From the NCBI GenBank assembly GCA_043798995.1, contig JAZDOD010000009.1, positions 14,015-78,014 on the forward strand: a stretch of 64,000 nucleotides of DNA, read 5' to 3'. The stretch comes from a bacterium. Its GTDB lineage: Bacteria; Patescibacteriota; Patescibacteriia; JAACEG01; JAGUWE01. The notes under the pieces were generated by a model. The model was not told where the DNA came from, ran no database searches, and saw nothing but the letters and a program-made list of their open reading frames with translations. Below are positions 32,771 to 38,020 of the stretch, piece by piece. Positions within the stretch are counted from its first letter, which is position 1. Each line of letters begins with the position of its first letter. Made by a program: the position numbers and the translations under genes.

Positions 32771-32805
32771 CCAAAACGCCCGTTTTTAAAACGGGCGTTT
32801 TGGCT
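32771..32805. terminator. perfect 35-bp palindrome, bidirectional rho-independent terminator after rpoC
   Basis: GCCAAAACGCCCGTTTTTAAAACGGGCGTTTTGGC followed by TTT. Confidence 0.6.
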
Positions 32806-32813
32806 TTGGGGCA

Positions 32814-32842
32814 TTGACAGTAAGCGGCTTTAGGTATATAAT
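32814..32842 (+). promoter_or_regulatory. near-consensus sigma70 promoter TTGACA-17-TATAAT for the DGR target gene, followed by palindromic operator-like sites
   Basis: -35 at 32814-32819 and -10 at 32837-32842. Immediately downstream lie ATTGACaatagaaaaGTCAAT and ATTCCGCcttgGCGGAAT inverted repeats. Confidence 0.45.
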
Positions 32843-32914
32843 GGTTTATTGACAATAGAAAAGTCAATATTCCGCCTTGCGGAATTAATGCTCTTTTTAA
32901 AAGGGAGGATCGCC

Positions 32915-33625
32915 ATGATTAGCGATAAGACCTTAAATAACGCAGAGTTAGAGTTGACGCAAAAGTTGCAAATGCATTTTCCGAGAGGAGTCATTTCTCC
33001 GGATGTGCTAAAGCAATGGAATACCTGTCAGAAAGAAGCTATTACAGCACGCCTAGTCGAAGCATTTAGCAAGGGACCGGAAATTGTTTCTTCCGCAACT
33101 GAGCATCTGCTTGAATTTCTAGGCACCATAATCATTCCAGATAATCCTGAAAAATTCGTCGTCAAGAAAAAATTCATCGTGGATACCGGCAAGAAAGCTC
33201 CGATAAAAATTTCCTATCTTGGATCGAACCTGCAAGAGTGGTTTCTTAACAAGGTCGAGGGACCAAGTGAAAAAACCGTTCTTCGCAAAGACCGATTACG
33301 GAAAGCGTCGATTGACATGCCCATTATCGCCGAACTTGGCGGCCACAACAAAGTAGCCACGACTTGGTTTGCCATCTGGCACCTAATGATCCCGAACCAG
33401 CTCGACAAGAATTTGTGGCATGTCTTCTATATGGAAGATGAAATCCGTTTCCCGGAAGACAAAACCATCGCTTTCACCAACGCGAAAAGCGAAAAAGGTG
33501 TGCTTCGCGCGGTGTACGTGTTCTGGCTCGACGGCGGCTGGGACCTGACGGCGCACTCCGTCCTGTCTCCGTACTGGTGGTCTGAGGGCCGTCGGTTCTT
33601 CTCCCGCAATTCCTCTGAAACTTAG
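32915..33625 (+). CDS. DGR target (variable) protein; C-terminal ~38 aa encoded by the variable repeat
   Basis: Start at ATG 32915 (MISDKTLNN), which has a GGGAGG SD. GC is ~47%, against a ~35% background, and codon usage is distinct (ccg/gcg/ctg/atc). The C-terminus GVLRAVYVFWLDGGWDLTAHSVLSPYWWSEGRRFFSRN is encoded by VR. No signal peptide is recognisable. Confidence 0.6.
   Translation: MISDKTLNNAELELTQKLQMHFPRGVISPDVLKQWNTCQKEAITARLVEAFSKGPEIVSSATEHLLEFLGTIIIPDNPEKFVVKKKFIVDTGKKAPIKISYLGSNLQEWFLNKVEGPSEKTVLRKDRLRKASIDMPIIAELGGHNKVATTWFAIWHLMIPNQLDKNLWHVFYMEDEIRFPEDKTIAFTNAKSEKGVLRAVYVFWLDGGWDLTAHSVLSPYWWSEGRRFFSRNSSET
33497..33609 (+). repeat. DGR variable repeat (VR)
   Basis: 113 bp homologous to 33991-34103. 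It differs at 22 positions, every one of which is an A in the TR copy. The last ~17 bp (ttcttctcccgcaa) are identical and A-poor, a candidate initiation-of-mutagenic-homing (IMH) boundary. A downstream hairpin GACCCTCT...AGAGGGTC lies at 33657-33703. Confidence 0.8.
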
Positions 33626-33990
33626 AATATATGGCTCTTTGATCCTTTAACACTCTGACCCTCTTGAATTTTTTGCAGAATCTTGCAGAAATTTGAGAGG
33701 GTCTTTTATTTTTGCTATACTATTTTTAGAATCATGCGCTACACGGCGGTTACGACTTCCGTGTTATGATTTCAGGAAATTTTTCACGAGAGTCGCGCCG
33801 GATAAGTCTTGCGCGAGAGTGTGAAAAATATTTCTTCAAAAAATTAAAATGAATTGGTGCAGGAAACCGGCGGATTTTTAGGTCCCGAATAAAATTCAGC
33901 CCCGAGAGTATTCATCCCATTAGAAATTCATAACTTCTAATGGGATTCAAGGGGCAGTGGCACAGATAGTTTTCTGCTCGAGAACGAGCC

Positions 33991-34103
33991 GGTGTGCTTC
34001 GCGCAGTAAACGTGAAATGGAACGACGACGGCTGGAACCTGAAAGCGAACTCCGTCCTGAATCCGAACAGGTGGAATGAGGGCAATCAGTTCTTCTCCCG
34101 CAA
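33991..34103 (+). repeat. DGR template repeat (TR)
   Basis: Contains 31 adenines, 22 of which are substituted in VR. Rich in AAC/AAT codons in the VR reading frame (N V K W N D D G W N L K A N S V L N P N R W N E G N Q). Followed by a hairpin CTCCTGCtagtctCGCAGGAG. Confidence 0.8.
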
Positions 34104-34107
34104 CTCA

Positions 34108-34527
34108 TTATTTTTCTCCTGCTAGTCTCGCAGGAGTTTTACTTAGTAAGCCCTTTTTCCATCCGCCAAGCATTCTTCCTATTTCTTCAAGCTTTTTGGA
34201 AAGCTCGATGTATTTTTCATTCGGAATAAGCTTGCTTTCCCAGGCGACTTGGACAAAGAATTTCAGGACATCAAGTTTTGATATAGTTTTTCCCAATAAG
34301 ATGAATTTCTGATCAGGCGGAAGGTAGGAGGCAGTAAAACTTAATTCAAGAATTTCAAGAAATGTCCAATCGATTTTTCTTCCAATCCCAAAACGCTCGG
34401 CTCTTCCCAAATTCCGCTGAAGCGCCAGCCAATATTGATAAGAATCCTTAATCTTATGAATTACAACGGGCAAGCCTCGGGGGGGGGCGTTAAAAGTCAT
34501 CTTACTATGAAAATTCAATTGAGCCAT
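34108..34527 (-). CDS. avd: DGR accessory variability determinant (Avd)-like four-helix-bundle protein (23S rRNA intervening-sequence protein family)
   Basis: LPVVIHKIKDSYQYWLALQRNLGRAERFGIGRKI and the C-terminus LIPNEKYIELSKKLEEIGRMLGGW match the Avd family pattern. It is on the strand opposite to TR and RT. Its coding sequence contains a C9 homopolymer (plus-strand G9 at 34489-34497). Confidence 0.65.
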   Translation of the reverse strand: MAQLNFHSKMTFNAPPRGLPVVIHKIKDSYQYWLALQRNLGRAERFGIGRKIDWTFLEILELSFTASYLPPDQKFILLGKTISKLDVLKFFVQVAWESKLIPNEKYIELSKKLEEIGRMLGGWKKGLLSKTPARLAGEK

Positions 34528-35020
34528 AATTTTTCCGAAATAATTCGCGTTGAAAATTTATTAGAAGCTTGGAAAGAGTTTGAAAAAGGCAAGAAAAGCA
34601 GAAAAGATGTGCAAGTTTTTTCATTGCGGTTAATGGATAATATTTTTTTGCTTCACAACGATCTTTTTCATCATACTTACAAACACGGAGAATATCAAGC
34701 TTTCAAAATCAATGATCCAAAACCCAGAGATATTCACAAAGCCACAGTTCGCGATCGGCTTCTGCATCATGCGATTTACAGAATACTTTAAAACTTCGGC
34801 TTCGGGAGTTGATTTTTTGGGCTTCATCAATTTTTATAATCATAGAATTTTGCGGACGAAAACAAAAAGGAGGATGTTTAAGAAGATTAGAATCAATAGA
34901 GAAAAATTGGCCAAAGGTCTTATCAGCAAGGAATCGTTCAATCAATTGCTGCAATCATATTATGGGATTCTCAAACATTGTCACGGTTATAAGTTAAAAT
35001 TAAAGATTGATGAATTGTAG
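34507..35020 (+). pseudogene. DGR reverse transcriptase remnant: internal deletion plus frameshift, catalytic motifs 3-7 missing
   Basis: Frame A runs 34507-34791: MKIQLSHNFSEIIRVENLLEAWKEFEKGKKSRKDVQVFSLRLMDNIFLLHNDLFHHTYKHGEYQAFKINDPKPRDIHKATVRDRLLHHAIYRIL. This is the RT N-terminus through motifs 1-2, then a stop. A different frame (34712-35020) encodes the RT C-terminus: VDFLGFINFYNHRILRTKTKRRMFKKI...SFNQLLQSYYGILKHCHGYKLK. Only ~170 codons are present in total and there is no YxDD motif. Confidence 0.6.
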
Positions 35021-35088
35021 TTTGAATCAAGATTGAGCCCTTTTTTCTTTAGACAAAATGGTTTTTTTATGGTATAATTAAGTTAAAT

Positions 35089-37294: not shown

Positions 37295-38020
37295 ATGACA
37301 AGTTTTAGAACCAAAAAAATTTTGGAAAATCTAACCTTAGGAGAAAGATTGGCCAGTTTAAGAAAAGCTAAAGCCATTAATTTGGCAACTTTAGCTAAAA
37401 AAACCGGCATCAGCCAAAAATATTTATTGGCTTTAGAAGAAGGCAGATATCAGAAATTGCCCAGCCGGCTTTATGCTAAAAATTATCTTAAAAGCTATTT
37501 AGCATCTCTGGCAGTTGATCGACCCGAAGATTATTTAAAATTATTTGAAAGCGAGCAATCAATTTATCAGAAAACTAACAGTTATTCAGATTCGCCTAAA
37601 AACGCATCTTCTTTTAATTGGCAGAAAATTTTAAAGCAAATTGAGATTACGCCCCAGAAAATAAAATTGGCTCTTATCGGCTTAACTATTTTGGTTTGTT
37701 TCAGTTATTTGGGCTGGGAGACAAAAAAATTTTTTAGCCCCCCCCGTTTGGTAATTGAGATGCCGGAAAATAATTTAATAACCAACAAACAATTGATTGA
37801 AGTTAAGGGCCGGACTGAAAAAGAGGCAAATCTGGCCATTAACGGCCAGGAAATTTTTGTTGCCAGTGATGGCTCTTTTTCAGACAAAATTTTTCTTCAG
37901 GACGGTCTTAATATCATCAAAATTTCAGCTAAAAAAAGATATTCCAAAGACAATACTATTTTTCGCAAAGTTTTAGTCATCGGCAGCGATGAGAAAAAAC
38001 AAGAAGTTTCAACAAAATAA
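37295..38020 (+). CDS. RodZ-like protein (XRE-type HTH + TM + C-terminal DUF4115-like domain)
   Basis: HTH LGERLASLRKAKAINLATLAKKTGISQKYLLALEEG. One TM helix. C-terminal beta-rich domain. A C7 tract lies in the coding sequence at 37738-37744. Confidence 0.45.
   Translation: MTSFRTKKILENLTLGERLASLRKAKAINLATLAKKTGISQKYLLALEEGRYQKLPSRLYAKNYLKSYLASLAVDRPEDYLKLFESEQSIYQKTNSYSDSPKNASSFNWQKILKQIEITPQKIKLALIGLTILVCFSYLGWETKKFFSPPRLVIEMPENNLITNKQLIEVKGRTEKEANLAINGQEIFVASDGSFSDKIFLQDGLNIIKISAKKRYSKDNTIFRKVLVIGSDEKKQEVSTK

Follow-up and report, generated by a model that had tools for sequence, protein, structure and literature searches.

Between rpoC and ftsK, this patescibacterial chromosome carries two similar 113-bp repeats next to pieces of a reverse transcriptase (RT), raising the question of whether the locus is a functional diversity-generating retroelement (DGR), the remains of one, or an unrelated duplication. 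We addressed this question in the 64-kb stretch of DNA around the repeats (here called the window). The genomic setting is as first described, an insertion into a housekeeping block: rpoB and rpoC were identified on one side of the cassette; the other side has ftsK and recA, together with a gene for an HTH-domain protein. We conclude that the locus is very probably a real chromosomal DGR cassette of Patescibacteria (CPR) that became non-autonomous when a 509-bp deletion removed the core of its RT.

The origin of the locus is recorded in the repeats. A variable repeat (VR; 33497..33609, + strand) and a template repeat (TR; 33991..34103, + strand) were compared without gaps over their 113 bp. 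They differ at 22 positions, and TR has an adenine at all 22; 22 of the 31 TR adenines are changed in VR (eight to T, seven to G, and seven to C), and all 82 non-A positions are the same, so that the adenine-only pattern reported by the first-pass annotation is borne out in full. The altered adenines fall on codon positions 1, 2, and 3 in 10, 8, and 4 cases, respectively, and TR is rich in AAC and AAT, as had been noted (6 and 3 of 38 codons). These mismatches show that mutagenic homing has operated on the target gene. VR and TR share GTTCTTCTCCCGCAA at their 3' ends, after which the flanking sequences diverge. The invariant end of VR is IMH-like: it is GC-rich and comprises the last 15 nt (33595-33609), slightly less than the ~17 bp initially given, and a hairpin lies 47 nt past VR, with a different hairpin past TR.

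A simple duplication, or resemblance by chance without any link to retrohoming, would account for the existence of a repeat and for nothing else. The probability that 22 random mismatches would all fall on the 31 adenines of one copy is about 1.4e-16, and the repeats adjoin an Avd gene and RT remnants. The same adenine-only divergence was found in five independent relatives examined in detail and in about 60 in a survey. No third VR-like copy is present on either strand of the 64-kb window. We therefore regard duplication as an explanation with virtually no standing.

The target gene (32915..33625, + strand) carries VR at its 3' end and encodes a small variable protein of 236 amino acids (aa) without a signal peptide. 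The gene appears to be equipped with its own control signals. A promoter-like site, TTGACA-17-TATAAT (32814..32842, + strand), matches the consensus at 12 of 12 positions, in keeping with the promoter proposed earlier, and is kept in a sibling strain (L005); it probably drives transcription of the target gene. Two short inverted repeats, TATTGAC...GTCAATA and ATTCCGC...GCGGAAT, follow at 32848..32885 (+ strand). They had been described as operator-like palindromes, but both are located downstream of the -10 box and thus read better as hairpins in the probable 5' untranslated region (UTR) of the target; pairing in the second is kept in the sibling strain through changes on both sides. The terminator assigned to the gene is also present, as a long GC-rich hairpin with a U-run (33657..33715, + strand; minimum free energy [MFE] fold, z = -3.55). 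The position of this element (GACCC.../...GGGTC plus a T-run after VR) is conserved across loci, and it possibly doubles as the DGR "inverted repeat downstream of IMH."

Horizontal acquisition of the target had been argued from a GC content much higher than that of the neighboring genes. This argument does not hold: GC content is 0.44 in the target outside VR, compared to 0.415 in rpoC and 0.425 in ftsK, and only VR is rich (0.66), because its adenines were replaced. What does support mobility, of the cassette as a whole, is that its genomic neighborhoods differ among relatives.

The fold of the target protein, a question raised at the outset, received a partial answer. Scans of Pfam, NCBIfam, and PHROG gave no domain match, comparison of the target family profile with PDB sequences returned only noise, and Foldseek searches of PDB and BFVD gave no significant structural match. 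The predicted model is nonetheless confident, with a helical N-terminal region and a mixed alpha/beta C-terminal domain that bears VR, and its top structural neighbors are almost all proteins of the C-type-lectin fold, albeit with weak scores.

The Avd-family open reading frame (34108..34527) is an intact avd (accessory variability determinant) gene on the minus strand, head-to-head with the RT gene. The assignment is confirmed in three HMM libraries: Pfam PF22296 bAvd (52.6 bits; cut-off, 40), NCBIfam NF033474 DivGenRetAVD (E = 4e-18; 65.7 bits, under the cut-off of 80), and PHROG 3206, "Avd protein of DGR" (E = 6e-17). A putative avd promoter, TTGATA-17-TATGAT (10/12; 34670..34698, minus strand), lies within the N-terminal RT remnant.

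The RT itself survives in two pieces. Neither was matched in the Pfam, NCBIfam, or PHROG scans; the two were joined into one query for homologues, which identified them as RT. The search matched about 1,500 RVT_1 proteins of roughly 296 to 300 aa; those with a named source, and the best matches, are from Patescibacteria. With an intact 296-aa RT (P0002) as the reference, the N-terminal remnant (34507..34791, + strand; 94 aa, ending in HHAIYRIL and a stop) is 83% identical to residues 1 to 94. The C-terminal remnant (34787..35020, + strand), which begins with FKTSASGVDFLGF and ends in KIDEL, is in another frame and matches residues 263 to 296 of P0002 and 227 to 297 of a second RT (P0065). At the junction (34786..34790, + strand), the same 509-bp gap is seen against three relatives (L007, L094, and L118). 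Lost with this out-of-frame deletion were ~168 RT residues, among them motif A (LKCDIRKFF), DGR motif B (LGNLTSQL), YADD, and LHPDKV; intact relatives have the first three of these. The DGR RT catalytic core (motif A Asp, [I/L/V]GxxxSQ, and YxDD) is thus absent, and only residues 1 to 94 and ~263 to the end are left. The two pieces recognized by the first-pass annotation are real RT remnants in different frames; as leftovers of a single frameshifting deletion, they are not a working component. Since the deletion took every catalytic motif, mutagenic homing with the enzyme of this cassette would not occur, and the locus is therefore DGR-derived rather than an autonomous DGR. The earlier DGR interpretation stands to the extent that it rests on the adenine-only repeats, the IMH-like end, Avd, and an RT clade of intact cassettes with the same layout, and it is qualified by the deletion of the RT.

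Could the locus nevertheless be an autonomous, active DGR, its RT split by an assembly or sequencing artefact or rescued by recoding? The perfect agreement of TR and VR outside adenines and the intact avd, promoters, and RNA would be expected of such an element. However, the ~168 residues with every catalytic motif are missing in all three frames, so no frameshifting could restore the RT. A typical assembly collapse would be flanked by a repeat, and this deletion is not; the RT core is also missing from the sibling strain, whose contig is independent; and many relatives in the databases have comparable internal deletions that begin and end elsewhere. Together, these observations make autonomy highly improbable.

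To place the locus among its relatives, we used a search based on a tight 15-sequence alignment, which recovered ~160 related loci; almost all come from patescibacterial metagenome-assembled genomes (MAGs). Their layout is target (+), a spacer of about 350 nt, TR, Avd (-), and RT (+), and the relatives with an intact RT are organized identically to the locus here. The cassette is complete in 35 to 38 of 84 nonredundant loci, with Avd on the minus strand every time. Decay of RT and Avd is common; in many relatives, loss has progressed, in the extreme to the target gene alone. The locus and its ~160 relatives thus form a decay series, from internal deletion of RT through loss of avd and RT to an RNA remnant and, finally, a bare target. 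No further contig was recovered by exact-sequence look-ups of the target, Avd, and the RT fragment. Viral contigs of IMG/VR likewise gave no match to a strict pattern for the RNA motif; the pattern itself finds only 48 of 165 related loci, and this null result is therefore weak evidence against phage carriage.

The sibling strain has its cassette at the same rpoC-adjacent site, with the RT core absent through a larger deletion and avd truncated. Its TR differs from that of the window at 4 of 113 positions (109/113 identity), and its VR, known from one contig, has 23 differences, of which 19 coincide with TR-A sites and 3 belong to the ragged 5' edge. Each VR has the base of its own TR (C/C versus T/T) at TR position 32, indicating TR-to-VR transfer after the two lineages split. 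Divergence between the strains is 3.6% in the TR transcript, compared to 9.1% in the RT remnant (p = 0.026), 11.7% in the upstream intergenic region (p = 0.0003), and 23.7% at third codon positions of the target.

These comparisons bear on whether the RT of another DGR in the same genome, with or without its Avd, still diversifies the locus as a maintained "satellite" TR/VR module. The TR transcript is the least diverged segment even though neither strain has a working RT, Avd is intact in the window, and all non-A positions of TR and VR still agree. Moreover, one MAG (H43-bin006_1) contains a complete cassette (L091) beside an RT-less module of RNA, TR, and VR (L134), in which VR matches its own TR only. 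On the other hand, the 64-kb window holds no other RT, the sibling avd is truncated, and one TR site in the sibling no longer agrees with its VR. The low divergence of TR is equally explicable by recent independent losses of RT or by recombination of the segment, and the progressive loss to a bare target in many relatives fits decay rather than maintenance. We consider continued service in trans a possibility, though a rather unlikely one, and favor a non-autonomous cassette that has lost its RT core.

The new element of this locus, missed by the first-pass annotation, is the VR-TR spacer, which contains a promoter followed by a conserved, structured, covarying RNA. A motif scan identified an extended -10 promoter-like site, TTGAGA-17-TG-n-TATACT (33693..33721, + strand), in which the TGnTAnnnT columns vary little or not at all across 59 loci. 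Immediately downstream, covariation defines a 5' domain of ~250 nt (33731..33979, + strand). It contains helices H1 (33731-36/33765-70), H2 (33741-46/33759-64), H3 (33783-87/33821-25), H4 (33793-98/33811-16), and H5 (33800-03/33806-09), a long-range H6 (33857-68/33968-79), and H7 (33872-75/33882-85), all on the + strand, as is a strain-specific insert hairpin (~33916-33944). RNAalifold predicts 50 pairs, 40 of which have compensatory changes; 94.8% of cells are paired, compared to 38 to 51% in slid controls, and none of 500 shuffles reached the observed values. An nhmmer profile of the domain matched 94 loci, all on the + strand. A 43-aa open reading frame (33693-33824) was considered as the spacer product and rejected, as variation is compensatory in the helices and not codon-like.

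At the predicted 3' end of the RNA, a terminator scan found the hairpin CTCCTGC-7nt-GCAGGAG followed by UUUU (34116..34140, + strand), which starts 12 nt past TR and overlaps the last avd codons on the opposite strand. Six of its seven pairs have compensatory changes among 44 loci; it is a terminator-like end of the TR RNA and a candidate Avd-binding stem-loop. A counterpart of the "cPRT stop" duplex of BPP-1, which would pair the 3' end of TR with the ~20 nt preceding TR, was looked for by eye, and no covariation was seen. In the literature searched, which includes part of the CPR DGR literature, we found no description of this conserved structured RNA around TR.

In an intact cassette, the dedicated promoter would drive an RNA of ~410 nt consisting of the structured 5' domain, the 113-nt TR, and the short 3' hairpin with its U-run. 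A complex of RT and Avd would then make cDNA from TR, misincorporating opposite adenines, and the cDNA would replace VR at the 3' end of the target, with the common 15-nt GC-rich end as the boundary and ~18 target codons recoded as the outcome. In this genome, a single later deletion of 509 bp has removed the catalytic core, leaving VR either frozen or changeable only with an RT supplied from elsewhere in the genome.

The abundance of DGRs in Patescibacteria is already known, and one extra cassette adds little. The decay series matters where "active" DGRs are counted from TR/VR pairs alone. CPR DGRs are among the closest known systems. Wu et al. (2018; PMC5758913) assign 90% of CPR DGRs to an architecture subtype called B3, and Roux et al. 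(2021; PMC8144416) describe DGR clade 2 as cellular and found only in Patescibacteria. As these sources describe them, CPR DGRs share with the locus here the host group, small RTs of ~296 to 300 aa, a cellular rather than viral location, targets without recognizable domains, and probably an arrangement of avd and TR unlike that of the prototype; the locus here differs in having lost the RT catalytic core. The target-TR-avd(-)-RT(+) layout is common to at least 35 patescibacterial loci, and the cassette may be of the B3 or clade 2 type. Candidate relatives of the target protein, on weak structural scores, are the C-type-lectin-fold DGR variable proteins (Mtd and TvpA, 2y3c) and the FGE/SUMF family.

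The prototype, the Bordetella phage BPP-1 DGR (mtd-avd-TR-brt), likewise shows adenine-specific TR/VR divergence, and its target gene also closes with a VR that has an invariant, GC-rich, IMH-like terminus and is followed by a hairpin. Also in common are Avd and, judging from intact relatives of the locus here, an RT of the same superfamily with the LGxxxSQ motif. As with the Avd-binding stem-loop of BPP-1 (preprint 10.1101/2023.10.23.563531), a stem-loop is located just past TR here. Unlike the phage-borne BPP-1 element, the locus here is chromosomal, its RT is deleted, and avd, placed between TR and RT, is encoded on the opposite strand, head-to-head with RT. The RNAs also differ. The functional RNA of BPP-1 consists of 20 nt upstream, TR, and a 140-nt downstream spacer, whereas ~250 nt covary upstream of TR here and only ~45 nt (linker, hairpin, and U-run) follow it before antisense-avd sequence begins.

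Part of the 5' domain has a likely relative in Rfam. Weinberg et al. (2017; PMC5737381) described RT-1 to RT-19 as motifs near RT genes; only RT-10, the BPP-1 spacer, was tied to DGRs, and RT-9 was left without a function. The full 92-nt model of RT-9 (RF03080) aligns to 33739-33852 (+ strand) at 25.4 bits, below the gathering score of 46.1, and in 7 of 13 relatives it aligns in full to the + strand at the same site upstream of TR, with subthreshold scores of 26 to 31.7 bits. Both have a hairpin whose loop region reads GGUUACGgCUU, followed by CAUG and then by UUCnCGAGAG; RT-9 covers only the 5' part of the ~250-nt domain. By sequence and structure model, the 5' domain appears to be related to RT-9 and is a nonmember by the Rfam criterion, and a spacer RNA with its own promoter gives this orphan motif a genomic context. 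The spacer RNA further suggests that the RNA requirements of BPP-1, a short upstream and a long downstream segment, are arranged otherwise in this lineage. We tentatively propose that the functional RNA of these patescibacterial DGRs is a discrete ~410-nt molecule with its own promoter and terminator, in which an RT-9-related 5' domain might perform the RT/Avd binding and positioning carried out by the downstream spacer in BPP-1. Because such an RNA is self-contained, RT-less modules of RNA, TR, and VR such as the one here could persist and be used in trans by an RT-Avd pair encoded elsewhere in the genome.

The window locus is a diversity-generating retroelement (DGR) cassette of a known Patescibacteria type. 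In a pairwise comparison, the variable repeat (VR, 33497-33609) in the target gene and the template repeat (TR, 33991-34103) align over 113 bp without gaps and differ at 22 positions, every one of which is an adenine in the TR (A>T, 8; A>G, 7; A>C, 7). The adenine-only divergence, the central observation of the first-pass annotation, was thus exactly right. Substitutions affect 22 of the 31 adenines in the TR and none of the 82 non-A positions; the probability that 22 random mismatches over 113 positions would all land on the 31 A positions is ∼1.4e-16. They fall at VR codon positions 1, 2, and 3 in 10, 8, and 4 cases, respectively, and the TR is rich in AAC and AAT as proposed (6 and 3 of 38 codons). 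Both copies end in a shared 15-nt stretch (GTTCTTCTCCCGCAA, 33595-33609 in the VR), slightly shorter than the ∼17 bp first given, and diverge beyond it, which is the IMH/IMH* arrangement. No further VR-like copy was found within the window.

An intact Avd gene lies next to the TR on the reverse strand (34108-34527), as annotated: its product matches Pfam bAvd (52.6 bits; cut-off, 40), the PHROG family "Avd protein of DGR" (E = 6e-17), and NCBIfam DivGenRetAVD (E = 4e-18; 65.7 bits, under the strict cut-off of 80). The reverse transcriptase (RT) pieces on the forward strand (34507-34791 and 34787-35020) fared differently. Neither has a Pfam match, but when concatenated they match ∼1,500 RVT_1 proteins of ∼296 to 300 aa, all from Patescibacteria where a source is named, and they are true remnants of this clade. 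In alignments, the first piece covers residues 1 to 94, ending in HHAIYRIL and a stop; the second supplies, in another frame, the C terminus from KTSASGVDFLG on. The gap between them is 509 bp against all three intact relatives compared, and the frame changes because 509 mod 3 = 2. The missing block held LKCDIRKFF (motif A), LGNLTSQL (DGR-type motif B), YADD, and LHPDKV, none of which is encoded in any frame of the window, and no other RT was detectable in the 64 kb. This RT is a pseudogene; because its core is deleted, the locus is not a working autonomous DGR. Many database RTs of the same clade show other internal deletions with differing breakpoints (P0001, P0008, P0009, P0036, P0054, P0077, and P0101). 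The avd and RT genes stand head to head at 34500-34527, overlapping or almost touching, and their starts are 3 to 30 nt apart in all relatives, so the promoter of each must sit inside the other; a promoter-like site for avd is found on the reverse strand inside the RT remnant (34698-34670).

The target protein (32915-33625, forward strand) has 41 detected homologues of 220 to 236 aa, none with a Pfam domain. Most members of the family alignment A2 carry a near-invariant N-terminal motif, NAELELTQKxQMHFPRG; several have unrelated N termini on the same C-terminal variable domain, which suggests that an N-terminal interaction or docking region is exchanged as a module. Through these homologues we fetched ∼160 related loci, nearly all from Patescibacteria metagenome-assembled genomes (MAGs). 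Complete cassettes invariably consist of the target (+) with a C-terminal VR, a spacer of ∼330 to 400 nt, the TR, avd (-), and RT (+). A cellular DGR clade confined to Patescibacteria was described by Roux et al. (PMC8144416), and the window locus belongs with these elements.

Of 84 nonredundant loci that extend 2.6 kb or more past the 3′ end of the target, 35 are complete (structured RNA, TR, Avd, and RT) and 3 nearly so. The RT is partly deleted in 3 (the window, L001, and L102) and lost with RNA and TR kept in 3; 8 retain RNA alone, whole or partial, 2 an RNA fragment and an RT scrap, and 1 Avd and RT without nearby RNA or TR, and 29 are bare target genes. Decay of these cassettes appears to be recurrent and independent. 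Loci in which avd and/or RT is gone, or RT is internally deleted, include L001, L102, L096, L105, L075, L077, L045, and L131. We also observed an RNA 5′ domain followed directly by an intact RT, without TR or Avd (L031:1036-2269), and a target with Avd and RT immediately behind it and neither RNA nor TR within 3 kb (L055:4001-5868).

A sibling-strain contig, L005 (positions 1-1721; Logan SRR22388163), is ∼90% identical to the window and shares the rpoC-adjacent site. The two VRs differ at 23 sites, 19 of them TR-adenine sites and 3 at the ragged 5′ edge. In each strain, the VR base at TR position 32 is that of the strain's own TR (C/C versus T/T), indicating TR-to-VR transfer after the lineages split. 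The deletion in L005 is larger than that in the window, fusing mid-avd to the RT C terminus, and its junction lies at an imperfect direct repeat (CATCAAGTTTTGATATA/CATCAATTTTTATAATCA).

Most probably, the cassette was inactivated recently and its VR is now frozen. We regard as possible, though rather doubtful, that it is serviced in trans by an RT encoded elsewhere. Such service would fit the intact avd and the perfect TR/VR agreement outside adenines in the window, but half of avd is also gone in L005, which has one non-A TR/VR mismatch. Trans service would also fit the pattern of divergence: of four regions compared in the window and L005, the TR transcript has diverged least, at 3.6%, versus 9.1% for the RT remnant (P = 0.026 against the TR transcript), 11.7% for the upstream intergenic region (P = 0.0003), and 23.7% for target third codon positions (P = 1e-13). 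Also in its favor, MAG H43-bin006_1 contains a complete cassette (L091) together with an RNA-TR-VR module lacking RT and Avd (L134, the same as L077); each VR there matches its own TR only. In favor of a recent loss with subsequent decay, the family-wide series extends down to bare targets.

The setting within a housekeeping block was confirmed: the cassette follows rpoB and rpoC and precedes ftsK, an HTH-domain gene, and recA. The HTH-domain gene (37295-38020) encodes HTH_25 and, at the C terminus, a Glucodextran_B-like domain, an arrangement resembling that of RodZ. Horizontal acquisition had been proposed from the high GC content of the target, but only the VR is GC rich (0.66), because its adenines were replaced; the rest of the gene (0.44) is close to rpoC and ftsK (0.415 to 0.425), so composition is no argument for recent acquisition. 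Related cassettes occur in unrelated surroundings, e.g., beside hydrogenase or EamA/HAD genes, and the cassette has therefore moved over evolutionary time. Two small inverted repeats (32848-32885), previously read as operator-like palindromes, lie between the -10 box of the target promoter and the ribosome-binding site; in the second, L005 changed both sides with pairing retained, which suggests a 5′-UTR hairpin rather than an operator.

What merits further work is the leader of the TR RNA, which is conserved and structured (5′ domain, 33731-33979, forward strand). The window and L005 share 96.4% identity in the VR-TR spacer, versus 85.1% in the target outside the VR; across 59 loci, the central spacer retains 72 to 80% DNA identity, whereas their targets share only 35 to 45% protein identity. 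Aligned spacers contain, in order, the target terminator hairpin, a near-invariant extended -10 box (TGnTAtAcT), and ∼250 nt of helices; the promoter-like site in the window is TTGAGA-17-TATACT (33693-33721, forward strand). RNAalifold predicted 50 pairs, 40 with compensatory changes. Standard pairs occupy 94.8% of cells in the predicted structure versus 38 to 51% in controls with slid partners, cells changed on both sides number 444 versus 66 to 128, and none of 500 shuffles matched the observed pairing values. Twelve nucleotides past the TR is a 7-bp hairpin with UUUU (compensatory changes in 6 of 7 pairs); beyond it lies antisense avd, with no more structure predicted. An nhmmer profile matched 94 loci, in each case on the strand of the target and TR; these include cassettes with unrelated targets (L002 to L004), and the window has a single match (33714-33983). 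A 29-nt perfect hairpin (CCCATTAGAA...TTCTAATGGG, 33916-33944) is inserted in a loop of the domain; among the 59 aligned loci, it is limited to the window strain and L005.

No description of this domain was found in the literature searched, which did not cover Paul et al. 2017. The full-length Rfam RT-9 model aligns to its first part, and the two share, in order, a hairpin whose loop region reads GGUUACGgCUU, CAUG, and UUCnCGAGAG. The alignment scores 25.4 bits in the window and, in 7 of 13 relatives, 26 to 31.7 bits at the corresponding site; none of these reaches the gathering score of 46.1, making the domain a subthreshold relative of RT-9. In Weinberg et al., only RT-10 is tied to a DGR, and RT-9 has no assignment (PMC5737381). 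The Bordetella prototype requires 20 nt upstream of the TR, the TR, and a 140-nt downstream spacer with the elements for Avd binding, priming, and RT binding (preprint 10.1101/2023.10.23.563531). Unlike in the prototype, most of the conserved structure in the window lineage is upstream of the TR, and we infer that in these Patescibacteria the 5′ domain helps to bind RT-Avd and position the template.
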